64,000 nt of DNA. Source: a virus. Its lineage: Duplodnaviria > Caudoviricetes. Location of the stretch: the IMG/VR virus record IMGVR_UViG_3300032232_001415, positions 1 to 64,000 of that record. The stretch is one strand, 5' to 3'. The notes beneath the pieces were generated by a model that was not told where the DNA came from, ran no database searches, and saw nothing but the letters and a program-made list of their open reading frames with translations. Positions 2,697 through 64,000 of this stretch are shown in pieces. The translations under genes were made by a program, and so were the position numbers. How positions within the stretch are numbered: position 1 is the stretch's first letter; every line of letters begins with the position of its first letter.

Positions 2697-3110
2697 ATGA
2701 ATAATCAAGAATATCCAGAAGATAATGATCCTTACAAGTTCTACTTTCAGATAGATACTGAATGGGTCAAGAAATATATGGATAGTCTGATTAATAAGAT
2801 AGAATATAAATGGATAAGTAAGGAGGCTATAGAAGATGCGTTGAAGAACCTATCTAACTATAATACTCCGTTACTTCCAGATGGATTTTCTCCGATTGCG
2901 TTACCTGTGAATAGTTCGTTCTCCAGTACAGCGGACGATAAAAAGTCCCTGTACTTGGGGAACAACTATTGGAACGAAGGAATGTGGAAAATAAAATACT
3001 TTATATATAATAAACTCCAAAAAGAATACGAACTACATTTACAGGCTCATGCTAAACATGTGGTTAGTCAGCCAAGATATTATGAATCTTTATTTGAAAT
3101 ACTTAATTAG
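2697..3110 (+). CDS. Hypothetical protein
   Basis: Tightly packed ORF with RBS-like AGGT. Confidence 0.6.
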   Translation: MNNQEYPEDNDPYKFYFQIDTEWVKKYMDSLINKIEYKWISKEAIEDALKNLSNYNTPLLPDGFSPIALPVNSSFSSTADDKKSLYLGNNYWNEGMWKIKYFIYNKLQKEYELHLQAHAKHVVSQPRYYESLFEILN

Positions 3111-3118
3111 GAAAATTT

Positions 3119-3547
3119 ATGAAGAAGAATAATAGTGATGACTGGTTTATAATTAAAGATTTTGATGGATTCGTAGAAGCCACAAGAGCATTAGTCTTTA
3201 ATTCTTTTGGTGCAGAAATCGAGGAGAAAGACGATTTTATTGTGTCTGTAACAGATAAAGATAAACAAGAACTAGATAAGATATTATCCTATGATGAGTC
3301 ATTTGCTATAATAGTAGGTTTTCTAAAAAAAGAAAAAAATAAAACTACTTCTAAAATAAGATATCTAGTAAACGATGATGCTTATATGAAGATAGTATAT
3401 TCTTTAAATGATAGAATGACTAGCAATATATTAAATGGATTAGTTAACAAAGGATTAGTTGAAACGGCGTATGATTCTGAATCTAACGACTTTATTTTTT
3501 GGGTGAAAGATGATAACAAAAAAGAAGAAAAACCAGAAACCGACTGA
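3119..3547 (+). CDS. Hypothetical protein (possible C-terminal winged helix)
   Basis: ILNGLVNKGLVETAYD resembles a wHTH recognition helix and wing. Confidence 0.55.
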   Translation: MKKNNSDDWFIIKDFDGFVEATRALVFNSFGAEIEEKDDFIVSVTDKDKQELDKILSYDESFAIIVGFLKKEKNKTTSKIRYLVNDDAYMKIVYSLNDRMTSNILNGLVNKGLVETAYDSESNDFIFWVKDDNKKEEKPETD

Positions 3548-3926
3548 GATAAGTGCATCTTTCAAATATACTTGTCCAAATACTGATTGTGGATTTAACT
3601 ATTGGTTATTTTTGAGAGAAGTTCAAACTAAAAACTTCAAAATAGTATGTGATTGCGGAACTATTTTTAAGCCTAAATTAATTAAAAAAATAAAGATAGT
3701 CTACCATGCCTCCGATCCAGTTAAAGAAACACTGGACAAAGCAGAAACGTCTGATAAAATAAGAACCAGCCAAGCCCTAATAAATAGTGCAATAAATACT
3801 ATGGTGGGTTTGGGATACAAAAAACAAGAAGCAAAAGTTTGTATTGAATTAGTGTGTGAATCTGAGATATTTGTTGATCATTTTTTAATTGTTAAAAAAG
3901 CTATATCAAAAATTGGAGGACTATAA
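3510..3926 (+). CDS. Zn-ribbon plus RuvA C-terminal (domain III)-like protein
   Basis: CPNTDC...CDCG, followed by SAINTMVGLGYKKQEAK...IVKKAISKI, which resembles RuvA domain III (A..AL..LGY...EA). Abuts ruvB. Confidence 0.6.
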   Translation: MITKKKKNQKPTEISASFKYTCPNTDCGFNYWLFLREVQTKNFKIVCDCGTIFKPKLIKKIKIVYHASDPVKETLDKAETSDKIRTSQALINSAINTMVGLGYKKQEAKVCIELVCESEIFVDHFLIVKKAISKIGGL

Positions 3927-4831
3927 TGTCTAAGGCTATGCGACCATCATCATTTGATGAAATTATTGGGCAGGATACTGTGATTAAGCGTTTGCGTGTT
4001 TCTGTGGCGGGTTGTAAAAACAGTGGTGGGTCGATGCCTCACGTTTTAATAGACGGCCCTCCTGGCCTTGGAAAGACTACCATAGCAAGTGCCATAGCAA
4101 ACGAGTTGGGAGTGAACCTATACACAACAAACGCAGCGACCATACGAAGTGTAAAAAATATTATGCCATATATTATGGGAATGTCTCCAAGATCAGTTTT
4201 GTTTATTGATGAAATTCACAGATTGCCTAAGATTGTGGAAGAATTTTTATATCCGGTCATGGAAGATTTTGTTCTTAATATCACTGTAAAAGATGATGAA
4301 GATAAAGAGAAACCAGAAAGTATTGATTTGCCAGTATTCACAGTTGTTGGTGCTACAACTAGTGGTGGAAGTTTAAGTCAACCATTTTATGATCGTTTTA
4401 CAATTAAAGAACATCTTTCTTTTTATGATGAGAATGATCTAGCTAAACTAGCAAGGTTGAATTGCGATAAATTAGGAATAGTCATAGATGATTCAGACCT
4501 TTTGGAAGTAGCAAAAAGAAGCAAGGGAACTCCTAGAATTCTTAATGCTAGATTACAATGGTACAAGAACTATAAGTCTTGTTATAATGACAATACAAGT
4601 ATTAATGATATTTTTAATGTTCAGGGAATAGATGAGAATGGATTTGATGTGTATGATAGGATGTACTTAAATATCCTAAAAAAATCTAAAGGCACTCCTC
4701 TTGGTCTAAAATCAATTTCATCAATGACAGGCATCGCTATTGATACTATAGAGAATAGTATTGAGCCATATCTGGCAAGAAAAGGTTATATTCTTAGAAC
4801 TCAAAAGGGGCGAATTATAGGAGACATATGA
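3926..4831 (+). CDS. ruvB: Holliday junction branch-migration AAA+ ATPase RuvB
   Basis: MRPSSFDEIIGQ, GPPGLGKTT, LFIDEIHRL, YPVMEDF, GATT, SKGTPR, IEPYL..GYILRTQKGR. Confidence 0.95.
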   Translation: MSKAMRPSSFDEIIGQDTVIKRLRVSVAGCKNSGGSMPHVLIDGPPGLGKTTIASAIANELGVNLYTTNAATIRSVKNIMPYIMGMSPRSVLFIDEIHRLPKIVEEFLYPVMEDFVLNITVKDDEDKEKPESIDLPVFTVVGATTSGGSLSQPFYDRFTIKEHLSFYDENDLAKLARLNCDKLGIVIDDSDLLEVAKRSKGTPRILNARLQWYKNYKSCYNDNTSINDIFNVQGIDENGFDVYDRMYLNILKKSKGTPLGLKSISSMTGIAIDTIENSIEPYLARKGYILRTQKGRIIGDI

Positions 4832-5154
4832 AAATATTTGGTATAGATCTTAATGTTAAGTCTAAATTTTTTAGATTTGCAACAAGATCACCCAAATGGT
4901 CTACTATAAGAAAAATTCACCTTAAAGATAACCCAAGATGTGCTGCTTGTGGGAGAGATTCCAAATTAGAAGTTCATCATATAGAACCAGTTCATAAAAA
5001 TCCAGATAGAGAATTAGACCCATCTAATTTGATTACATTATGCGATAATCCATGTCACATAGTATTTGGACATCTACTGAACTATAAGAGTTGGAACTCT
5101 GATGTTGTTGAAAATTGTAAACAATATTTAGAAAAAATAAAAAATAGACCATAA
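4828..5154 (+). CDS. HNH endonuclease
   Basis: CAACG..LEVHHI.P...NLITLC...CH. Confidence 0.85.
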   Translation: MKIFGIDLNVKSKFFRFATRSPKWSTIRKIHLKDNPRCAACGRDSKLEVHHIEPVHKNPDRELDPSNLITLCDNPCHIVFGHLLNYKSWNSDVVENCKQYLEKIKNRP

Positions 5155-5158
5155 TATT

Positions 5159-5184
5159 AAGGGACTTTTGTCCCTTTTTTATTT
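5159..5184 (+). terminator. Rho-independent terminator
   Basis: AAGGGAC-TTTT-GTCCCTT followed by a T run. Confidence 0.85.
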
Positions 5185-5191
5185 ATATGGT

Positions 5192-5197
5192 GGTGTA
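5192..5197 (+). promoter_or_regulatory. GGTGTA putative phage-specific promoter motif
   Basis: Directly after a terminator and ~20 nt before an RBS/ATG. Recurs at 6559, 12164 and 24421, and on the minus strand at 45930-45935. Confidence 0.45.
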
Positions 5198-5216
5198 CCT
5201 TATCATAGAGGAAACT

Positions 5217-5531
5217 ATGGAAGATACTATACATATTATATTGATTATATTAATACTATTGAATATAGTATTTTTCTTTTTAGGATATATCATTGGTAAA
5301 TTAACTAATAGTCAGACAACTATTGAGAGTCAGCCAAATTCATTTTTCAAAAAAGATATTAAAGAAAAAAAAGATAAGATAAAAACTAAATTGATAATAG
5401 ATGAAAGTAAATACGTGACTGATATTAAAACTTCTGATATGGAAAAAAAATACGAGAATCTTGGTGAAACAAAAAAAACTAATGAAAATATAGAGTCATC
5501 AATTAACAAACTCAAAAATTTAAAAGGGTAA
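5217..5531 (+). CDS. Single-pass membrane protein with charged cytoplasmic tail
   Basis: Hydrophobic N-terminal helix IHIILIILILLNIVFFFLGYIIG. Start set at ATG 5217 after GAGG. Confidence 0.7.
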   Translation: MEDTIHIILIILILLNIVFFFLGYIIGKLTNSQTTIESQPNSFFKKDIKEKKDKIKTKLIIDESKYVTDIKTSDMEKKYENLGETKKTNENIESSINKLKNLKG

Positions 5532-5535
5532 TATC

Positions 5536-6537
5536 ATGGGTAAAGGATTGGATGTGGGCACAAGTTTTATAGTATTATCTCAAGATTCATCTGATGGAGT
5601 AGTTTATAAAGATTTTAGAGATGCGTTTTATATAATAAAACCTACAACACCAGTAGCTACAAAAATGATTGAGAAAGGATTATCTGGAAAAATATTCATA
5701 AAGGATACTGATGGATCTTTTGTAATACTAGGAAAAGATGCTATTGAAAAAGCAATCGAGAGAAATGATAATGCCAAAAGACCCATGAGCAAAGGGGTTG
5801 TATCCGCCAAAGAAAAGGACGCAAAGCGTGTTCTAGCCTTTATTTTAAAAGAAGTGGCCGGTCAGGCATCAGAACAAAATGAGAAACTCGTATTCTGTGT
5901 TCCTGCACAACCAGTTGATCAAGAAGATGAAGACTTTGATGTTGGATACCATGAAGATGTAGTAAAATCTATTTTAGCAGAATGTGGTTATGATGCTAAG
6001 GCTATTAACGAAGCAGAAGCATTGTGTTATGCAGAACTAGGAGATGAGGATTATACTGGTATAGCAATATCATGTGGGGCCGGAATGACTAATGTTTGCG
6101 TAATGTTAAATGGAGAACCAACTGTAGTATTTAGCACAACTAAATCTGGTGATTGGGTTGATCGTATGAGTGCGGTAGCCACTGGAGAAAAAGATAGTGT
6201 TGTTCAAGCAGAAAAAGAAGGTGGTGGATTTACTATTGGAGAAAGTAATGAAAATCCGGTTTTATCTGCGGTTTCTTCGTATTATGAAAGATTAATTGAC
6301 TATACCACAAAACAGTTAGCATTTGCATTATCTAGTCATAAATCTTTACCAAAATTTAAAAATCCACTAACAATAGTTGTTGCTGGAGGAACGTCTCAGG
6401 CAAAAGGATATATTGATATTTTTACTAAAAAATTATCAGAAAATAACTTTCCTTTACCTGTCAAAATTGTTAAACACGCTAATGATCCACTACATGCGGT
6501 TTCAAAAGGGTGCTTGATAGCAGCAAAAGTTCTTTAA
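5536..6537 (+). CDS. Actin-fold ATPase (MreB/MamK superfamily, volactin-like)
   Basis: Phosphate-1 GLDVGTS, connect-1 INEAEA, phosphate-2 ISCGAGMTN, adenosine VVAGGTS, connect-2 PLHAVSKG. Confidence 0.85.
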   Translation: MGKGLDVGTSFIVLSQDSSDGVVYKDFRDAFYIIKPTTPVATKMIEKGLSGKIFIKDTDGSFVILGKDAIEKAIERNDNAKRPMSKGVVSAKEKDAKRVLAFILKEVAGQASEQNEKLVFCVPAQPVDQEDEDFDVGYHEDVVKSILAECGYDAKAINEAEALCYAELGDEDYTGIAISCGAGMTNVCVMLNGEPTVVFSTTKSGDWVDRMSAVATGEKDSVVQAEKEGGGFTIGESNENPVLSAVSSYYERLIDYTTKQLAFALSSHKSLPKFKNPLTIVVAGGTSQAKGYIDIFTKKLSENNFPLPVKIVKHANDPLHAVSKGCLIAAKVL

Positions 6538-49371: not shown

Positions 49372-50103
49372 TTGAGAAAAAATACTAAAGGTAAGAAGAA
49401 AAAAGTAATTGATGCTACCAAACCATTGGTAAATGAAAATAGTGGACATGCTTATAGAAATAGGCTAAAACCACGCACAGACAATCAAAAAGAATATATT
49501 CGTACCATAGCTGAAAATACCATCACCTTTTGTCAAGGACTAGCGGGAAGTGGAAAAACTCATATTGGTATTGGTATGGCAATAGAGTATTTATTAGATG
49601 CAAAAGTAAAAAAGATTGTAATAACTAGACCAGTTATTGAGGCTGGTGAAAAAATTGGATATTTGCCAGGAACCGCAGAAGAAAAACTTCATCCTTATCT
49701 ATTACCGATAATAGATGAAATACATCATTTTATTTCTCCTGCTCATTATGCTAGTTTAAAACTGAATAATAAAATAGAAGTTGTTCCACTCGGTTTAATG
49801 AGAGGTCGTAATTTTCATGATTGTTTCATAGTTGCAGACGAGTGCCAGAATGCATCATATGAACAACTAAAAATGTTAATAACAAGAATAGGTAAAGATA
49901 GTAAACTAGTATTAACTGGAGATGTGGGTCAATCAGATTTACATAGACACATACAGGGTGGATTCATTGAAATGATTAACAATCTGAATGATATAGATGG
50001 AATAGGAATTTCTAAATTAGAATCTTCTGATATTGTTAGAAATCCTATTATTGCAAAAATTTTACTAAGACTAGAATCTTATGAGAACGGAAATACAAAA
50101 TAG
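49372..50103 (+). CDS. phoH: PhoH-family ATPase
   Basis: GLAGSGKT, ITRP, GYLPG, MRGRNF, DECQN, TGDVGQSD, VRNP. Confidence 0.93.
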   Translation: MRKNTKGKKKKVIDATKPLVNENSGHAYRNRLKPRTDNQKEYIRTIAENTITFCQGLAGSGKTHIGIGMAIEYLLDAKVKKIVITRPVIEAGEKIGYLPGTAEEKLHPYLLPIIDEIHHFISPAHYASLKLNNKIEVVPLGLMRGRNFHDCFIVADECQNASYEQLKMLITRIGKDSKLVLTGDVGQSDLHRHIQGGFIEMINNLNDIDGIGISKLESSDIVRNPIIAKILLRLESYENGNTK

Positions 50104-50662
50104 TAAATGTCTAGTACTAAATGCTGACTACACGCCATTAAAAGTAATAGATTGGCAAAAAGCAATCTTATTATCTGTAAAATGTTCTATAACATCAAAA
50201 TGTAGTGTTGAAATTATTGAATACTATAATGATAGGCATATTCATGGTGTTTGTGGAAAAGTGTATAAGTTACCCAAATTAATAAGAACCACCAAATATT
50301 TTAACTTGTATAATAAACCAATGAATTTTTCTAGAAAAAATTTGTTTATAAGAGATAAATATACTTGTCAATATTGCGGGATGCAACATGCTACTAATCA
50401 TTTAACATATGATCATATTATACCAAAATCCAGATTTAAAGGACAAAAGCACCATTGTACGAATTGGGAAAATATAGTTACGGCATGTATAAAATGTAAT
50501 CATAAAAAAGGCAACAGAACACCGTCCGAAGCCAATATGAAATTAATAAAATCTCCAATTAGACCAAATTACTCTCCAGAATACTTGCCTTGGGTGGATG
50601 ATCTCGATACTATAAAAGACGATGATGAAATCATGAAACTCTGCAGACCATACCTAGGATAA
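50081..50662 (+). CDS. HNH endonuclease
   Basis: LVLNADYTPL, RD.YTCQYCG, DHIIPKS, WENIVTAC..CN..K. Confidence 0.9.
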   Translation: MRTEIQNSKCLVLNADYTPLKVIDWQKAILLSVKCSITSKCSVEIIEYYNDRHIHGVCGKVYKLPKLIRTTKYFNLYNKPMNFSRKNLFIRDKYTCQYCGMQHATNHLTYDHIIPKSRFKGQKHHCTNWENIVTACIKCNHKKGNRTPSEANMKLIKSPIRPNYSPEYLPWVDDLDTIKDDDEIMKLCRPYLG

Positions 50663-52598: not shown

Positions 52599-53018
52599 AT
52601 GGAAGAATATATATCAAAGTATTCTAATGGCAAAGTTGTATCAGCAGCTCAATACATTACAGAAATAATATGTGAGAGAAAAGCACTGATCAATAAAGAA
52701 GATTTACATTATAGATTTTGGCTTCAGTCAAAATGGGAAGTTTTTTATAGAAATCAAATTGGTTCAGCACATAAGCTATTAAAAAAATATTCTTCAAAAT
52801 CTATTATAAGAGCACTTAATACAGACAAGGGGAAGAAAATATATTCTTTGCGAGCACCCCACCTTCCTCCTATCATAGAAGAACAAGAAGTGGTTCTAAA
52901 ATCAGAAAATCAGAATCTAAATCTTAATTTGCAAAGGAAAGAGAATGTTAGTTTTCCTACAAATAAAGCTACAAAAAATATAATTTCAAAACTAAAAGGA
53001 TTAGATTATGAGTCTTAA
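52599..53018 (+). CDS. Hypothetical protein upstream of recA
   Basis: Packed ORF. Confidence 0.6.
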   Translation: MEEYISKYSNGKVVSAAQYITEIICERKALINKEDLHYRFWLQSKWEVFYRNQIGSAHKLLKKYSSKSIIRALNTDKGKKIYSLRAPHLPPIIEEQEVVLKSENQNLNLNLQRKENVSFPTNKATKNIISKLKGLDYES

Positions 53019-54027
53019 AGAAGATGTAAGAAAAAAATTTGGCGATGATATAATGTTAACAGCAAATGCTGTAATTGATAAAAATTTAATAACCATCCCA
53101 GTAAGCCCAGCGTTGGATATAGTTCTAAATGGTGGTATTCCAGAAGGGTCGTTCGTTATTCTTACTGGACAACCAAAATGTGGCAAAACAACTACATCAT
53201 TAGATTTCTGTGCTACCGCACAAAGACCAGAATATGCCTATGGTTCCTTTAAAGAAGGAAGGGAAGTGTATTACCTAAACATAGAAGGTAGATTGAAAAA
53301 GAGAGACCTAGAAGGAATACCAGGATTGAATTTAGAAAAATTTAATATTATAGGTTCTCAAGAGGGCAAGATACTTCATGCTGAAGAATATCTGCAAATA
53401 GCTGAACGAATTATTAATGAAATTCCAGGATCTGTAGTAATAATAGATTCATATTCAGCCCTTTGTACAGAGGCTGAGATCACATCCGATATGGATAAAA
53501 TGCAAAGAGCAGACGGAGCAAAGCTATTAGCAAAATTTTGTAGGAAAGTAGCAAATGTTATTCCTGTAAATAGGAATATAGTCATAGGCATAACACATTT
53601 GATGGGAAATCCAGGTTATGGTACATCCGAATGGAAAGAAAAAAGTGGACAAGCCATAGCATATCAAACTGATATAAAACTTAAAGCAAAGTTTTTTAAA
53701 AAATGGAATCTTAGTGATGATAGTCCCCAAATAGGACAAGAAGTTGAATGGGAAGTATTATGTTCTGCTTTGGGGCCTCCGGGTGGTAATATTACAAGCT
53801 ATATAAGATATGGTCAAGGAATAGACAGGCAAATGGAATTGCTTACTTTAGCTGTTGATCTTGGATTCATTCATAAGGGTGGAGCTTGGTATACTATGAG
53901 TTCTGTCGAAGATAAACCAAAATTTCAAGGACTGGAAAAAACAAGACAATATTTAGTAGATAATCCAAAGGTTTATGAAGATTTGTTGCTAAAGGTCAGA
54001 GATACTATGGGAATAAAATGCAAGTGA
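53008..54027 (+). CDS. recA: RecA/UvsX-like recombinase
   Basis: LDIVLNGGIPEG, GQPKCGKTT, IIDS, YGQGID, GGAWY, KFQG. Confidence 0.9.
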   Translation: MSLKEDVRKKFGDDIMLTANAVIDKNLITIPVSPALDIVLNGGIPEGSFVILTGQPKCGKTTTSLDFCATAQRPEYAYGSFKEGREVYYLNIEGRLKKRDLEGIPGLNLEKFNIIGSQEGKILHAEEYLQIAERIINEIPGSVVIIDSYSALCTEAEITSDMDKMQRADGAKLLAKFCRKVANVIPVNRNIVIGITHLMGNPGYGTSEWKEKSGQAIAYQTDIKLKAKFFKKWNLSDDSPQIGQEVEWEVLCSALGPPGGNITSYIRYGQGIDRQMELLTLAVDLGFIHKGGAWYTMSSVEDKPKFQGLEKTRQYLVDNPKVYEDLLLKVRDTMGIKCK

Positions 54028-55300: not shown

Positions 55301-56767
55301 ATGATTTTATGTGATCCTTCTGCCGAAAGGGCAGTATTGGCGGGAATTTGCAGTTACGGCGATGACGCATATTTGGATATTGCTGACATAGTTCAAGAAA
55401 CTTCTTTTACTATAGATAGCAATATTGTGATATATAAATGCTTAAAAAAGCTTTGTGAGCTAGATACAAAAACAAAAATAGATATAGCATCAATATACTC
55501 TATAGCTCAAGAGCTTGGCCTCGATCATATTCTTTCTAAAAAAGAAGAAACTCAACACCTAAAAGCTATTATGGATTTTCCTGTAAGTCAGGAAAATATA
55601 AGAAGATTTGCAGCAAAAATACGTAAGCTAGAAATAGCAAGACTATTAAGACAACAGCTAGAATTAGCTCAGAATAAAATTTTAGACGTTACGGGAAGCG
55701 AGTCCATATCATCTATAATCGGTCTTGCCGAAGACACGATCTTTAATTTTACGTCTTTGCTTAATGATGGAGATAGTGGACCAGAAAAAATTGGTTCAAC
55801 AATAGAAGAGTATATTAGAGATCTAGAAGAGAACAAAATTGATCAAGTTGGCATACCAACAGGATTTCCTATTTATGATCAATCAATTGGAGGAGGATTA
55901 AGAAAAGGTACTATTAACGTTATCGGAGCTAGACCAAAAACTGGAAAAACTCTTTTATCAGATAATATGGGTCAAAATATAGCTAAACTTGGTATTCCAG
56001 TTTTAAATATGGATACCGAAATGAATAGAGAAGACCATATTCATAGACTATTAGCTATGATGACAGAAATTGAAATCAATGCAATTGAAACTGGTAAATT
56101 TGCTGATTCTCCAGATACTAAAAATAAAATATCAAAAGCGGCACTTGATATCAAGAATATGAATCTGTATCATAAAAGTATAGCCGGAAAACCTTTTGAG
56201 GATCAATTAGCAATAATGAGAAGATGGTTAGTAAAAGAGGTTGGATTAAATGATGACGGAACTGCAAAAGATTGTGTTATATTTTATGACTATTTAAAGC
56301 TAATGGATAGTGCGGGAATCTCTCAGGATATGAAGGAGTATCAAGTATTGGGATTCATGATGACAAGTCTGCATAATTTTGCTGTTAGATATAAAGTTCC
56401 AATCGTGGCATTTATACAGTTAAATAGAGATGGCATAACCAAAGAAAGCACAGACTCTGCCAGCGGATCTGATCGTATAATATGGTTATGTAGTAACTTT
56501 ACAATTTTTAAAAGAAAGAGTGATGAAGAAATAGCGGAGGATGGTCTTACAAATGGAAACAGAAAATTAGTTCCTCTTATTAGTCGTCACGGCGGTGGAC
56601 TAGACGATAATGATTATATAAATTGTTATATGAAGGGCTGGTGTGCTAAGATAACAGAAGGCAAAACAAGATTAGAATTACTGAATAAAAAATCAAAGGA
56701 TGATGAAGGATTTATATTAGATAATGAAAACTCAAATAATGATGAAGAAGAAATTCCATTCGAATGA
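55301..56767 (+). CDS. dnaB: DnaB-like replicative helicase
   Basis: AERAVLAG, GIPTGF, GARPKTGKT, DTEM, DYLKLM, QLNR, SGSD. Confidence 0.92.
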   Translation: MILCDPSAERAVLAGICSYGDDAYLDIADIVQETSFTIDSNIVIYKCLKKLCELDTKTKIDIASIYSIAQELGLDHILSKKEETQHLKAIMDFPVSQENIRRFAAKIRKLEIARLLRQQLELAQNKILDVTGSESISSIIGLAEDTIFNFTSLLNDGDSGPEKIGSTIEEYIRDLEENKIDQVGIPTGFPIYDQSIGGGLRKGTINVIGARPKTGKTLLSDNMGQNIAKLGIPVLNMDTEMNREDHIHRLLAMMTEIEINAIETGKFADSPDTKNKISKAALDIKNMNLYHKSIAGKPFEDQLAIMRRWLVKEVGLNDDGTAKDCVIFYDYLKLMDSAGISQDMKEYQVLGFMMTSLHNFAVRYKVPIVAFIQLNRDGITKESTDSASGSDRIIWLCSNFTIFKRKSDEEIAEDGLTNGNRKLVPLISRHGGGLDDNDYINCYMKGWCAKITEGKTRLELLNKKSKDDEGFILDNENSNNDEEEIPFE

Positions 56768-58459: not shown

Positions 58460-58986
58460 GCGAAACAAAAAATATAAAACATTTAGTATCAGATTTCTGT
58501 GTTGGTTTAGGCATAGATATAGGATGCGGTGGCGACCCGGTTGCGCCAGATGTTCTTAGGTTTGATTTAAAAACACCATACACCCAGGAGAACAATTATC
58601 CGGCACAATTTATACTGAAAGAAAAACCAATATTATACTATATAAACAATAATTCTCTAGACTATATCTATAGTAGCCATCTAATAGAAGATTTTTTTTA
58701 TGAGGAACTTAAAGTCATAATAGCAGATTGGTTTCGAGCTTTAAAAGTTAATGGAAAACTCATATTGTGTGCCCCTGACCAAAAAGAATATATAAGACAT
58801 AACGAAGAAGTTTTAGGTATAAATAGATTCGACCATAGAGTTAATCAAGCTCATAAAGAGCAAGATTTCTCTATTGATACTTTTATAAATAATGTGTTAT
58901 CTCATATATCTATACAATATAATACAATCTTATCAATTCCGTCCATCAAACCATACTCATGGATTTTAATCCTAGAAAAATTATGA
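58456..58986 (+). CDS. SAM-dependent methyltransferase
   Basis: IDIGCG, SSHLIED, W.RALK..G.L....PD. Start ATG 58456 overlaps the upstream stop. Confidence 0.8.
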   Translation: MSETKNIKHLVSDFCVGLGIDIGCGGDPVAPDVLRFDLKTPYTQENNYPAQFILKEKPILYYINNNSLDYIYSSHLIEDFFYEELKVIIADWFRALKVNGKLILCAPDQKEYIRHNEEVLGINRFDHRVNQAHKEQDFSIDTFINNVLSHISIQYNTILSIPSIKPYSWILILEKL

Positions 58987-60026
58987 TTATTACCTATCTA
59001 AGAAGTAGTTCATACGGTACGCACTCGATGTGTCCTCAACAATATTTTTTTGAATATGTTCTAGGATGGAAATCTCCATCTAATAAAAAAGCTGATAAAG
59101 GCACAATTTGCCACAAGGTCTTAGAAATTTTAGCACATATTAAACTTTGTTCTCAAAATAAAGAAAAAATATATACTGATGATATACTTGGCGATATAAA
59201 TATCAAAAAATATGATATAGTAGATATATCTAACAGAGTTTACGAATATTATACCAGCCTTTTCACTCATCATGTGTGGGAGAATAAAGATCTAAAAGAT
59301 TGTATACTGTGGGTTAATAAGGCATTAACAGAGCATAATGGAACATTCGATCCAAGGAACAGGGATATTCTACAACCCGAACAAAGATTTGACATAGTAA
59401 TAGAAAAGCCGTGGGCTAAATTCAAATATAAAACACCAACAGAGAATCTGGAAGGTTATTTGGCAATAAAAGGAACTATCGATCTAATAACAAGAGTTAA
59501 TGAAGATACCATAGAAGTTATAGATTGGAAAACAGGAAGAAGATTAGACTGGGCTACTGGTGAAGAAAAAACACTAGCTAAGCTACAAGACGATCCTCAA
59601 CTAAGAATATACCACTATGCTGTTAGCAAACTATATCCTGATATAAATCATATTATGATAACGATAAATTTTATTAATGACGGTGGAGCGTTTACTATCT
59701 GCTATGATAAAAAAGATTTATCGAAAACCGAAGATATGATAAGACATAAGTTTGATAAAATAAAAAACACAAAAACTCCAGAATTGAATAAATCGTGGAA
59801 ATGTAATAAACTTTGTCATTTTGGAAAAACAACATTTGAAAATACAAATATTCTTCCAATATTAGAGTATCGTGGTGGACAATTAGTTCAAGTCGATAAG
59901 CCTATGACCAAATGCGAACAAGTTAAGCATGATATCGAACTCAAAGGAATAGACAATGTGATTGACCAATATACCGTCTCAGGATACAATATTGGTAGTT
60001 ACAAACCCCCAGGAAGTGCAGAATAA
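58983..60026 (+). CDS. Cas4/AddB-like PD-(D/E)xK exonuclease
   Basis: CPQQY, KGTICH, GTIDL, IDWKTG, QLRIY and C..LC...C Fe-S ligands. Confidence 0.85.
   Translation: MIITYLRSSSYGTHSMCPQQYFFEYVLGWKSPSNKKADKGTICHKVLEILAHIKLCSQNKEKIYTDDILGDINIKKYDIVDISNRVYEYYTSLFTHHVWENKDLKDCILWVNKALTEHNGTFDPRNRDILQPEQRFDIVIEKPWAKFKYKTPTENLEGYLAIKGTIDLITRVNEDTIEVIDWKTGRRLDWATGEEKTLAKLQDDPQLRIYHYAVSKLYPDINHIMITINFINDGGAFTICYDKKDLSKTEDMIRHKFDKIKNTKTPELNKSWKCNKLCHFGKTTFENTNILPILEYRGGQLVQVDKPMTKCEQVKHDIELKGIDNVIDQYTVSGYNIGSYKPPGSAE
59962..59990 (+). promoter_or_regulatory. Sigma70-type promoter for the dnaE operon
   Basis: TTGACC-N17-TACAAT, ending 35 nt before the dnaE ATG. Confidence 0.65.
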
Positions 60027-61897
60027 TGAATTATATTCCTCTCCATTGTCATTCCATGTTTAGTCTGTTGGATGGATTATCAAAACCTTCGCAGATTGCT
60101 GATAGGTGCCTAGAAATCAATGCGACCTCATGTGCATTAACCGATCATGGAAATATAGCTGGCGCTATCAAGTTTTATACTGAGATGAAGTCACGCGGCA
60201 TAAAGCCAATTCTTGGTTGCGAAATATATCTGTGTGAACAAGATCCAAAAATTCAAGAAAAGTCCAACAAAGATTTGACACATTTTATAGTTTTGGCCAA
60301 AAACTACCAAGGATGGAAAAATTTAATCAGGCTAGTGTCTGAGTCCAACAGACCAGACTTTTATTATCACAAGCCACGCCTCAATCTGGAGTCTCTGGCA
60401 GCATTCTGTGACGGTAACCTAATAGGATTTTGCGGCCATCTAGGATCACTCTTGGCAGATAAAATTATTGACCAGAATAAAATAATTGAGGATTGGCAAA
60501 ATGTTGGAGTGGAGATAATAGCCAAATTAAAGAAAATATTTGGTGAAGATAATTTTTTTCTAGAAGCTCAGTTAATGGATTGTGAAAATACCCCAATACA
60601 AAAAGAATTAACAGATATAATAAGAAAGTTGGGAAAAATAACCCACACTAAAGTAATATGCACACCAGACGCTCACTACTGTAAAAAAGAAGATGCTAAT
60701 GATCAAAGAATTTTATTATGCAATAATCTAAAAACAACATTTCCTGATATTAGTAGAAAAATCAGTAACGATGAAGATGTTCCGTTATCCTGTTTTTTTA
60801 CTTCTGATAATTTTCATATTCTCTCACAAGAAGAAATGAGAAACTTGCACACAGAAGAAGAAATTGCTAATACTAATTATGTAGCATCTTTATGTGAAGA
60901 ATATAATATTCTTAGTAAACCAAAATTACCACCATTCAAATGTCCTGAAGGATATAATCCAGATGAATACCTAAGACAACTTTGCAGAAATGGCTGGAGA
61001 GATAAGATAGCTAATAAAATCAAACAAGAAGATCAACAAATATATATTGATCGCATAAAATACGAATTAGATGTTCTACAGGGCGCTGGGCTGTCAAGTT
61101 ATTTTCTTATTGTTCAGGATATTGTTGATTATGTCAGAAAAAATAAATGGCTACCCGGACCAGGAAGAGGAAGCGCAGCAGGATGTCTGGTATCATACTT
61201 AATAGGCATAACTAGTATAGATCCGATTAGATATAATCTATTATTTGATAGATTTTATAATGCTGGAAGAAATACTGCTGATCGTATTTCAATGCCAGAT
61301 ATTGATGTTGATGTGCCAATAGATAAAAGAGAAATTATAATTGATTACATTAAAAATAGATATGGTCATGACAAAGTATCTCAAATGGTCACATTTAATA
61401 CCATTAAGGGACGAGGGGCCTTAAAGGATGTTTTAAGAGTTTATGGTAATATATCATTTGATGAGATGAATAAAATTACAAAAAATATTCCTGATGAAGC
61501 AAAAATTGCGGATGAACTCCAAGAGATGAAAGATGAGACGGGCGAGGCATCTATCATAAGATGGGCTTTGGAAAATAATCCAGAAAAATTAAAAGAATGG
61601 TGTTTTATCGACGAAAATAACGAATTACAAGGACCACTTGCAAAAAGGTTCGAGCAGGCTATAAGATTAGAGGGCACAAAGTCCAACCAATCCAAACATG
61701 CTGCTGGTATAGCCATTAGTGCAGAGCCGCTGAACATAACTTGCCCAATGGTATATGATGCAAAAAATGAACAATCTATAGCTGGTATGGAGATGCAAGA
61801 CTTGGAATCAATAGGTATTATAAAATTTGATATTTTAGGTGTAGCAATGTTGGACAAAATAATGACTATTCAAGATATTCTTAAAAATGGAGGATAA
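60026..61897 (+). CDS. dnaE: DNA polymerase III alpha, N-terminal half (PHP, palm, thumb)
   Basis: LHCHSMFSLLDG, TDHGN, GPGRGSAAG, MPDIDVD, HAAG; ends after KFDILG. Confidence 0.93.
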   Translation: MNYIPLHCHSMFSLLDGLSKPSQIADRCLEINATSCALTDHGNIAGAIKFYTEMKSRGIKPILGCEIYLCEQDPKIQEKSNKDLTHFIVLAKNYQGWKNLIRLVSESNRPDFYYHKPRLNLESLAAFCDGNLIGFCGHLGSLLADKIIDQNKIIEDWQNVGVEIIAKLKKIFGEDNFFLEAQLMDCENTPIQKELTDIIRKLGKITHTKVICTPDAHYCKKEDANDQRILLCNNLKTTFPDISRKISNDEDVPLSCFFTSDNFHILSQEEMRNLHTEEEIANTNYVASLCEEYNILSKPKLPPFKCPEGYNPDEYLRQLCRNGWRDKIANKIKQEDQQIYIDRIKYELDVLQGAGLSSYFLIVQDIVDYVRKNKWLPGPGRGSAAGCLVSYLIGITSIDPIRYNLLFDRFYNAGRNTADRISMPDIDVDVPIDKREIIIDYIKNRYGHDKVSQMVTFNTIKGRGALKDVLRVYGNISFDEMNKITKNIPDEAKIADELQEMKDETGEASIIRWALENNPEKLKEWCFIDENNELQGPLAKRFEQAIRLEGTKSNQSKHAAGIAISAEPLNITCPMVYDAKNEQSIAGMEMQDLESIGIIKFDILGVAMLDKIMTIQDILKNGG

Positions 61898-61899
61898 TT

Positions 61900-62085
61900 A
61901 TGGCGATCAAAAAATTTATGGATTTGTCTATTGGTGATAAATTCAAATTAAATGGTATTAATTATGTTAAGATTCAAGAAGAGAGAATTAGTTGTTGTCA
62001 GGTTATAAATGCCTCACAAGAAGATTTACCTAGTACCAGAATACAGGTTACTCCAATAACGGAAGTGGAAACAGATATTAACTAA
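61900..62085 (+). CDS. Small hypothetical protein between the dnaE halves
   Basis: GGAGG RBS; 61 aa; SH3/KOW-like LSIGDKF...YVKI. Confidence 0.65.
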   Translation: MAIKKFMDLSIGDKFKLNGINYVKIQEERISCCQVINASQEDLPSTRIQVTPITEVETDIN

Positions 62086-62786
62086 TGATAAACTATAATA
62101 AAATATGCGTTTTTGATTTTGAAACAGACGGTTCTGACCCGTCCGTGTGTAGTCCCGTTCAAATGGCTGCTGTAATTGTTGATCCAATAAAATTGGAAAT
62201 AATCCCAAAATCAGAATTTAATATCTTTTTTAAACCAGAAGTATTGGCAAAAGACGATAATTATGTATATGAAACTGACATTCTAGATTTTCATTCTAAG
62301 GTTAGAGGATGCTCCAAGGATGAGATTCTAGAAACTTGGAAAAAGTATCCATCACAAGATCAGTCGTGGAAAATTTTTACTAATTACCTTGAAATGTATC
62401 ACACAAGAGCGTCTAAGAAAAGCCAATTTAGTGCTCCAATAGCCGCTGGATATAACATTAATAGGTTTGATTTGAGAATAATTAATAGATTAAGTAAAAA
62501 ATATGGTAATGTAAATAAAGAAGAAAATTCAGATATTTTTTTTCCAAGAGATGTTTTAGATATAATGAATTTGGTTTTTTATTGGTTTGAACACAATGGT
62601 GACTTAAAAAGCTATTCACTAGATACTTTAAGAGATTATTTTGGTATTTCAAAAGAAGGTGCTCATGATGCTCTTAAAGACGTTAAAGACTGTGCAAATA
62701 TAATGATAAGATTTCTTAAGCTACATAGAAGCCTATCAAATAAAATAAAATTTAAAGATTCATTTTTGGAAGCTATTGATAAATAA
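62085..62786 (+). CDS. dnaQ: DEDDh 3'-5' exonuclease (DnaQ/epsilon-like)
   Basis: FDFETDG, GYN..RFD, AHDALKD. Confidence 0.85.
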   Translation: MINYNKICVFDFETDGSDPSVCSPVQMAAVIVDPIKLEIIPKSEFNIFFKPEVLAKDDNYVYETDILDFHSKVRGCSKDEILETWKKYPSQDQSWKIFTNYLEMYHTRASKKSQFSAPIAAGYNINRFDLRIINRLSKKYGNVNKEENSDIFFPRDVLDIMNLVFYWFEHNGDLKSYSLDTLRDYFGISKEGAHDALKDVKDCANIMIRFLKLHRSLSNKIKFKDSFLEAIDK

Positions 62787-62796
62787 AAATAAATAT

Positions 62797-64000
62797 ATGA
62801 CAAAAGAATTTTGTTATCCATGCGGATGTTCTTTCAAAGTCTTGGAAGAAACTAAAGATTTTCCTAGGCTAGAATTTACCCCTATAATAGAAGATATTAA
62901 TTTAGAATGTTCAAAAACATGGGAACTAATATCTGATGGTAACACCAAGGGATGTTTCCAATTAGAAAGCAGACTAGGTCGATCAATAGCTAAAAAACTT
63001 AAACCAGAGAATGTTGAACAACTATCAGCGTTGATTAGTATTTTAAGACCAGGATGTTTGGAAGCTATACGAGATGGTAAAAGCGTAACAAATCATTATA
63101 TAGATAAAAAAAATGGTAAAGAATCCATAGACTACTACCATCCTGCTCTAGAACCAATACTAAAGACAACATACGGAGAAATGGTATATCAAGAACAAGC
63201 AATGGAAATTGCAAAAGTTATTGCTGGATTTAATTTACAAGAAGCAGACATGTTAAGAAAAGCCATCGGTAAAAAGAAGCCAGAAGAAATGGCAAAGGTA
63301 AAAGAAAAATTCTTGTCTGGTGCTAAATTAATAGGAAAGGTTTCAATAGATGAGGCAGAAGAAATTTTCGGATGGATAGAAAAAAGCCAAAGATATTCAT
63401 TTAATAAGTCCCATTCTGTTAGTTATGCTATAAATGCATATTTATCTGCTTATACTAAAGCACATTTTCCTAAAATATTTTTTGCTTCATATCTAAGATT
63501 TGCAAAAGATAAGATTGATCCAAAAGCAGAAATAAAAGAATTAGTCCAAAATGCAAGCGAAATGGATATAAATGTTTATACTCCTGATATCAGAAATATA
63601 AATAAATTATTCATCTTAAAAAATAATGGTATATATTTTGGCTTAACGGATATCAAGGGTTTTGGTAATTCTGTATACGATAAATTATTGGCTATTCTAG
63701 ATAAAAAATCAATAGAAATAGAAAAGCTTAATTGGATACAAATGCTCTGTCTTGTATTACAGGATATTAATTCTACAGCAGCAAAAGCCCTCATAAAGTC
63801 AGGTGCTCTATCGTATATAAAAAAAACAAGAAACTCGATGTTATTTGAATACGAATTAATCAGCCAGCTAACTAAAAAAGAATTAGAATATATCAATAAA
63901 AATATATATGGATATGAAACACTCGATCAAGCATTATCTAGTCTAATAAAGCTAGGAAAGATCAATAAAAAAAGATTAATAAATGTTCAAAATATATTGT
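62797..64000 (+). CDS. dnaE: DNA polymerase III alpha, C-terminal half (fingers, HhH); runs off the window end and is missing from the ORF track
   Basis: Translated by hand: INLECSKTWELISDGNTKGCFQLES, LISILRPG, TYGEMVYQEQ, ADMLRKAIGKK, YSFNKSH, IYFGLTDIKGFG. Confidence 0.92.
   Translation, partial: MTKEFCYPCGCSFKVLEETKDFPRLEFTPIIEDINLECSKTWELISDGNTKGCFQLESRLGRSIAKKLKPENVEQLSALISILRPGCLEAIRDGKSVTNHYIDKKNGKESIDYYHPALEPILKTTYGEMVYQEQAMEIAKVIAGFNLQEADMLRKAIGKKKPEEMAKVKEKFLSGAKLIGKVSIDEAEEIFGWIEKSQRYSFNKSHSVSYAINAYLSAYTKAHFPKIFFASYLRFAKDKIDPKAEIKELVQNASEMDINVYTPDIRNINKLFILKNNGIYFGLTDIKGFGNSVYDKLLAILDKKSIEIEKLNWIQMLCLVLQDINSTAAKALIKSGALSYIKKTRNSMLFEYELISQLTKKELEYINKNIYGYETLDQALSSLIKLGKINKKRLINVQNIL

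Follow-up and report, generated by a model that had tools for sequence, protein, structure and literature searches.

A RuvB motor encoded beside a zinc-ribbon protein that ends in RuvA domain III points to a cut-down, virus-specific RuvAB in uncultured jumbo phages

We analysed a 64,000-nucleotide stretch of DNA from an uncultured tailed phage (Caudoviricetes; IMG/VR record IMGVR_UViG_3300032232_001415, positions 1 to 64,000; hereafter "the window"), concentrating on a gene for the AAA+ motor RuvB and on the small gene directly upstream of it, whose product we call the mini-RuvA adaptor. RuvA is usually described as having a fixed three-domain architecture. The adaptor retains a homologue of its third domain, carried behind a flexible linker on a basic zinc ribbon, and it is encoded together with an intact RuvB and with a third, upstream gene, o142. 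We consider it likely that these three genes form an operon for a virus-specific, cut-down RuvAB, in which domain III is mounted on a zinc-ribbon anchor and which would act in recombination or fork processing. An earlier note, made from the sequence alone, had drawn attention to this pairing and had proposed a rewired adaptor that loads RuvB on a new target, possibly with an adjacent HNH nuclease as its cutting partner; its observations are partly confirmed and its interpretation is partly supported by what follows.

Scanning IMG/VR with the adaptor as a single sequence returned no match. An alignment-based scan returned 168 relatives, from which 80 loci were fetched, 77 of them extending far enough to show ruvB. 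As a protein family, the adaptor has 63 close clusters; at 50% identity and E ≤ 1e-3 there are 436, of which the best 150 are 80–184 amino acids long and nearly all match over both domains. Family profiles were built from 47 sequences and then from 143 representatives, and four relatives of 178–224 kilobases (kb), each 100% complete according to CheckV, served as complete genomes for comparison.

The RuvB of the window is intact, as the earlier note had claimed. All three of its Pfam domains lie above their cut-offs (RuvB_N, 2.6e-48 and 164 bits; the lid domain, 3e-8 and 33.8 bits; RuvB_C, 5.3e-18 and 65.2 bits), and the protein passes the NCBIfam equivalog NF000868 (302.4 bits, cut-off 282) while falling just below the threshold of TIGR00635 (279.2, cut-off 299). 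The motifs expected of a working motor are retained, namely Walker A (GPPGLGKTT), Walker B (FIDEIHR), sensor 1 (GATT), the DRF arginine and sensor 2 (GTPRI), and alignment with Acinetobacter and Streptococcus RuvB shows that the winged-helix head keeps its basic hairpin, R-x2-K-G-R. RuvB identity across the 77 loci is 63–87%.

The adaptor is organised quite differently from bacterial RuvA. In the AlphaFold model the ordered part before the linker is just 66 residues long and forms the zinc ribbon. RuvA_N has no match in the adaptor or in its 143 relatives, HHH_5 and HHH have none in the adaptor family, and against the full RuvA model TIGR00084 the adaptor scores 17.5 bits (cut-off 85). With the OB and HhH domains gone, the tetrameric junction clamp and the acidic pin are missing as well. 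What stands in their place has four cysteines (C22, C27, C47 and C49, in the pattern CPx3C...CxC), three of which are invariant among the 143 family representatives and the last of which, C49, is kept in at least 90%. Within the adaptor, conservation is highest in the ribbon, at 63% identity to relatives versus 23% for domain III. The ribbon is basic (net charge +7, isoelectric point (pI) 9.3); its Pfam matches are to generic zinc ribbons only (IBR, L37ae, SprT, TFIIB, OapC). The linker is 11% identical to its counterparts and varies from 13 to 60 residues across the family. These results agree with the earlier note, which had already described a protein with domain III retained from RuvA and with a zinc ribbon where domains I and II would be.

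Homology of the C-terminal bundle to RuvA domain III is established, and rests on family profiles together with fold. Taken alone, the window's adaptor matches Pfam RuvA_C below threshold (E = 0.013, 16.4 bits, cut-off 24), and its sole NCBIfam match is to positions 137–187 of the ruvA model (E = 0.0025); the resemblance becomes convincing only because family profiles and fold searches add to this weak single-sequence match. Searched against the Protein Data Bank (PDB), the 47-sequence profile retrieved 1ixs_A at E = 0.0053, with RuvA in seven of eight rows and the whole of domain III aligned, and the 143-sequence profile retrieved the same chain at E = 2.9e-4, with RuvA in seven of ten rows. 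RuvA_C is the commonest Pfam match among family members (18/143, best E = 3.2e-5), one relative reaches 21.2 bits for it, and it is found in 50% of the members of a viral sister cluster in the ESM Atlas. Alignment of the family by hhalign to one Acinetobacter RuvA is weak (E = 0.029, probability 1.7%) and is placed on domain III. With the AlphaFold model as query, Foldseek ranks 1–23 are all RuvA (root-mean-square deviation (rmsd) mostly 1.2–2.0 Å), with TM-scores of 0.77–0.85 against stand-alone domain III chains. VIA-align, which is independent of Foldseek and was run over 48,161 chains, places RuvA domain III at ranks 1–5 (Z = 8.4, 8.2, 8.1, 7.7 and 6.0; rmsd 1.2–2.0 Å over 48–51 residues), the next unrelated row having Z = 5.9.

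These searches also bear on the idea that the bundle is a generic UBA-like one with a function unrelated to RuvA, the zinc ribbon being the working part of a small DNA-binding or regulatory protein and the adjacency to ruvB reflecting no more than a shared replication operon. Small three-helix bundles of this fold class (UBA, the EF-Ts N-terminal domain, NAC) are common, UBA domains do occur lower in the fold lists, and the ribbon is far better conserved than the bundle. Yet UBA domains reach Z = 4.2–5.3, against 8.1–8.4 for RuvA domain III, and the RuvA rows stand about 2 Z units over the best of them; sequence profiles pick out RuvA domain III specifically and no UBA protein; and both the RuvB-contact motif and a gene order and overlap that mirror bacterial ruvA–ruvB are kept (see below). 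We regard this alternative as improbable.

RuvA domain III binds helix alpha-3 together with the presensor-1 hairpin of RuvB (PMC9477746). In E. coli, the domain spans residues 155–203, is preceded by a 15-residue flexible linker, and contains two leucines whose substitution (L167A, L170A) abolishes RuvB activity in vivo and leaves junction binding unaffected (PMC2628435, citing Nishino 1998). We mapped these contacts onto the adaptor family by hidden Markov model alignment to a Salmonella chain and by column counts over 52 sequences. L167 corresponds to family position 98 (L in 42, M in 10) and L170 to position 101 (Y in 39, L in 10, F in 3); G171 becomes the invariant G102, Y172 becomes F or Y at 103, and E176 becomes E107 (50/52). 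In the window the motif reads M98-x-x-L101-G102-Y103-x3-E107-A108, of the LxxLGYxxxEA type. The contact positions are therefore retained in a domain that has otherwise drifted (23% identity), so that the hydrophobic face that would bind RuvB is kept.

On the RuvB side, the picture is more varied. The acidic stretch KDDEDKEKPE, which the earlier note had placed in the presensor hairpin, is indeed present in the window, as residues 122–131 at the hairpin tip, but only 17 of 47 distinct RuvBs have such a long acidic hairpin; in the other 30 it is four residues shorter than in bacterial RuvB. The acidic tip is a subclade trait and not a family one. The hydrophobic strands of the hairpin are kept in both length classes, and it is the tip that is altered. 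In 47 of 51 loci the short hairpin is paired with a YGF version of the domain III motif, and the bacterial-like LG[YF] motif occurs only alongside bacterial-length (long) hairpins, a hint that hairpin and motif co-vary.

An alternative is a decoy, whose domain III module would bind RuvB of the host, or compete with the host's own RuvA, and so disable host RuvAB during infection, with the phage RuvB working alone. The window's VGLGYKKQEA is nearly identical to the VALGYKPQEA of E. coli and Salmonella, a resemblance that belongs to the window's subclade, and RuvA and RuvB are able to cross-complement between species (PMC9477746). However, most of the family has diverged to YGF along with a shortened phage hairpin, in 72 of 77 loci translation of the adaptor gene is coupled to that of the phage's own ruvB, and a decoy would have no need of a conserved zinc ribbon and linker. 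We therefore judge this explanation unlikely.

In bacteria, the gene order is ruvA followed by ruvB. In the phages, ruvB directly follows the adaptor gene in all 77 loci, answering the earlier note's call for a check of the neighbourhood, and stop and start overlap in the 72 loci just mentioned. In the window, the adaptor's TAA stop and the ruvB ATG (3926) have one base in common, with the ruvB Shine-Dalgarno sequence lying inside the adaptor's last codons, 5 nucleotides before the ATG. Overlooked by the earlier note, o142 precedes the adaptor gene on its upstream side in all 80 loci, and in 78 of them the two overlap by 23–74 nucleotides at the adaptor's start. On the basis of this arrangement, o142, the mini-RuvA gene and ruvB are predicted to be a translationally coupled operon.

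The o142 product is acidic (mean net charge −10, pI 4.7) and is modelled confidently by AlphaFold, with a predicted local distance difference test score (pLDDT) of 83.5 and a predicted TM-score of 0.71. Fold searches gave no clear match (VIA-align Z < 5; weak Foldseek rows to SarA/MarR), and there is no match in Pfam, PHROG or NCBIfam. We considered whether o142 could be the split-off DNA-binding half of RuvA and rejected this; the protein is acidic, shows no HhH or OB signal and has weak fold matches. The 38-nucleotide overlap of o142 and the adaptor gene in the window (3510–3547) codes for two conserved peptides in two frames, EKPETD in the o142 tail and KNQKP near the N-terminus of the adaptor, in which K10 and P11 are invariant among the 47 sequences. 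In one relative (L063), where an insertion parts o142 from the adaptor gene, the o142 tail is changed.

Canonical partners of RuvB are missing from the complete relatives, which are the genomes in which the earlier note's remark on an absent ruvC was checked: each of the four encodes exactly one RuvB, and in none of them do RuvA_N, RuvC or HHH_5 give a match above cut-off. RuvA_C similarity is found and the adaptor gene is conserved beside ruvB, and a full-length ruvA elsewhere with this frame unconserved, the pattern that the earlier note had set against its own proposal, is not what we see. Three of the four complete relatives encode endonuclease VII; searching the window by tblastn with the relatives' proteins detected none (best E = 0.24). 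A weak RuvC-like match, below cut-off (E = 0.003), was seen in a 223 kb relative (L081; contig G002, 88008–88184), and sits within a 5,392-residue open frame, a giant gene. According to a survey of jumbo phages (Iyer et al. 2021, PMC7824862), phage RuvC occurs uncoupled from a RuvB-like ATPase, and a phage RuvB with a RuvA remnant is unusual for that reason.

The HNH gene that follows ruvB in the window is a clear member of its class (PHROG HNH families down to 1.3e-15), and the earlier note was right that it overlaps the ruvB stop (as ATGA) and that a terminator follows; it is not, however, a fixed neighbour of ruvB. A three-part machine, in which the adaptor loads RuvB and HNH is the dedicated cutter in place of RuvC, would gain from this overlap and from the shared terminator, a layout found again in L056 and L057. 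These are the only two of the 77 loci in which HNH adjoins ruvB. In the remaining loci the gene either is missing or stands after the actin gene and before the peptidase gene, and three relatives (L002, L007 and L017) pass from ruvB through an equivalent GC hairpin and a T-run to GGTGTAAT within about 100 nucleotides, without HNH. A different HNH gene occurs in two other relatives (L063, L065), and relatives have endonuclease VII as resolvase. HNH as cutting partner is largely refuted by this synteny, and we hold it to be very improbable. Because it is rarely beside ruvB, and because relatives keep ruvB, terminator and downstream motif without it, the HNH gene is, on comparison of these loci, a mobile, homing-type insertion between ruvB and the conserved terminator, outside the RuvB unit.

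Several further observations concern this region. Directly after the terminator of the window is a conserved GGTGTA (5192–5197), and GGTGTA(AT) is likewise found directly 3′ of the terminator in L002, L007 and L017; the motif is a possible promoter element, specific to this lineage, of the unit that comes next. In L063 (2902–3504, minus strand, 200 amino acids) and L065, the different HNH-type gene separates o142 from the adaptor gene and is encoded on the opposite strand, a second, independent HNH invasion of the cassette. The window contains a further HNH gene at 50081–50662 (HNH_5, 1.6e-10), beside a PhoH-like gene.

Bacterial RuvA domain III acts as a nucleotide-exchange factor and ATPase activator for RuvB and, via the RuvA core, provides the fulcrum for pulling DNA (PMC9477746). 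In the cut-down RuvAB that we favour, the adaptor's C-terminal domain descends from RuvA domain III and would act both as nucleotide-exchange and ATPase-activating factor and as tether for the RuvB motor; the tetrameric junction-clamping core is gone, with the flexible linker now joining domain III to the zinc ribbon; and anchoring would fall to the basic ribbon, which would hold on to DNA or else to a protein of the phage, for instance the acidic o142. The complex probably serves phage recombination or fork processing, together with phage RecA and, in relatives, endonuclease VII.

A number of points weigh against this account. With the tetrameric core gone, the account has difficulty in explaining how a junction is gripped and how a fulcrum arises. 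The most conserved part of the adaptor is not domain III but the zinc ribbon, and domain III is the least conserved folded part (23%) although RuvB is 75% identical. At about 50 residues, domain III is too short to give more than a modest E-value in any one search. The interaction of adaptor and RuvB is itself predicted, from the contact motif and gene coupling; the co-variation of hairpin and motif is confounded by phylogeny; and since the hairpin tip and helix alpha-3 of phage RuvB differ from their bacterial counterparts and domain III has diverged, the interface may have changed.

As the earlier note had supposed, the adaptor may plausibly bring RuvB to another target, whether DNA or protein. 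A more far-reaching version, which we put forward tentatively and with less confidence than the cut-down RuvAB in general, is of a virus-only minimal RuvAB in which the zinc ribbon, possibly with o142, replaces the RuvA tetramer and RuvB is retargeted beyond the classical Holliday junction, to forks, D-loops or replisome protein–DNA complexes. If this were true, the RuvB motor could be driven by domain III on a tether of any kind.

Table 1. Coordinates of the cassette and its parts in the window.
Feature	Position	Strand	Basis or remark
o142, acidic 142-amino-acid protein	3119..3547	+	3′ end overlaps adaptor start; possible third component
Mini-RuvA adaptor, 138 amino acids	3510..3926	+	zinc ribbon, linker, RuvA domain III; AlphaFold mean pLDDT 81.9
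Basic four-cysteine zinc ribbon, residues 10–66	3537..3707	+	pLDDT 93–95
Flexible linker, residues 67–86	3708..3767	+	pLDDT <50 at residues 71–83
RuvA domain III homologue, residues 87–138	3768..3923	+	three-helix bundle (modelled 88–135)
ruvB Shine-Dalgarno sequence GGAGGA	3915..3920	+	within adaptor's last codons, 5 nucleotides before ATG
RuvB AAA+ motor, 301 amino acids	3926..4831	+	Pfam RuvB_N, AAA_lid_4, RuvB_C
RuvB presensor-1 hairpin region	4271..4348	+	alignment with Acinetobacter and Streptococcus RuvB
Free-standing HNH endonuclease	4828..5154	+	PF01844 2.8e-7, 31 bits (cut-off 21.4)
Intrinsic terminator closing ruvB operon	5159..5185	+	7-pair stem 5159–5176, then T-run

The source is an uncultured jumbo-phage lineage: the longest contig in the adaptor's protein cluster is 225,812 bp, and polymerase identity to the nearest isolated phages is at most 35%. 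The window is AT-rich (about 30% GC), with nearly all genes on one coding strand; ARAGORN, run over its whole length, found no tRNA and no transfer-messenger RNA, and a terminator-like hairpin is predicted at 1065–1083. Replication and recombination genes in the window include those for an rIIB-like and a primase-like protein, and the order rIIB, primase-like, o137, o142, adaptor, ruvB, o114, actin, peptidase is kept across loci. Two genes are conserved just upstream of the cassette, one for the 392-residue primase-like protein (1169–2347; PHROG DNA primase 4e-4, Pfam RepB_primase E = 0.07) and one for an acidic 137-residue protein (2697–3110); both may belong to the same replication–recombination module as the cassette. 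Downstream, an actin-fold ATPase (5536–6537; full-length Pfam Volactin match, E = 7.8e-65) is preceded by a small membrane protein, and the pair (within 5187–6537) is kept in most related loci at 70–94% identity; in GenBank phages the ATPase matches only two uncultured huge phages, at 34% identity. Farther along, a phage RecA is encoded at 53008–54027, and the regions 55301–56767 and 58959–63999 include a DnaB-type helicase, a Toprim protein and a PD-(D/E)XK nuclease among their products. The alpha subunit of PolIII is split into two genes (60026–61897 and 62776–63999), with a gene for an RNase T-type exonuclease in between.

The adaptor family is almost exclusively viral. Its neighbours in the ESM Atlas fall in clusters that are 94–100% viral, and a scan of 185,579 species genomes gave one match, on a 1.1 kb contig (L093, RFNS01000222.1). 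This contig had been binned into an Alphaproteobacteria metagenome-assembled genome from freshwater (Lake Lanier), which, with the 30% GC, faintly suggests that the host is an AT-rich alphaproteobacterium, unless the contig is simply a mis-binned phage fragment. Among 50,697 GenBank phage records, tblastn found no match to the adaptor at E ≤ 1, and RuvB's matches in these records do not exceed 40% identity and largely represent bacterial DNA in "phage" records, as in one example where the neighbours of ruvB are purL, ruvA and tolQ. No longer fused forms of the adaptor (287–2000 amino acids) were found when searched for, which is weak evidence, and the viral structures of BFVD gave no meaningful match. 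Literature searches touching the question returned no description of a zinc ribbon combined with RuvA domain III.

A large and diverse viral group that keeps only domain III of RuvA, on a different anchor, amounts to a natural experiment. With it one can ask directly whether domain III and a tether suffice to activate and position RuvB; it could also show how RuvB acts when unclamped from the four-way junction, and it gives a name to a family so far annotated only as hypothetical.

Compared with the bacterial RuvAB of E. coli, Thermus thermophilus and Streptococcus/Salmonella (PDB 1IXR/1IXS, 7PBL–7PBT, 7X7Q), the phage system is alike in its full-motif RuvB with presensor-1 hairpin and winged-helix head, and in an upstream partner gene that overlaps ruvB and ends in a linker-joined domain III with L-x-x-L-G-Y-x3-E-A. 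It differs in that the partner has a four-cysteine zinc ribbon instead of OB domain I and HhH domain II, in a RuvB that is about 15 N-terminal residues shorter with a shortened or acidic hairpin tip, in having no RuvC, and in belonging to a family that is almost only viral. Isolated RuvA domain III (1IXS_A, 7X7P_A) is a stand-alone RuvB-binding module of about 50 residues, as the adaptor's C-terminus is predicted to be, and the adaptor model superposes on it at rmsd 1.2–1.7 Å; those chains are laboratory truncations, whereas the phage form is natural and tethered to a new domain. Finally, the recombination kits described for jumbo phages, with RuvC, endonuclease VII or RusA (Iyer et al. 2021, PMC7824862), resemble the present one in including the phage's own RecA and, in relatives, endonuclease VII, but this lineage has a true RuvB and a RuvA remnant and no RuvC, which corrects the view of jumbo phages as being without a RuvB-type motor.

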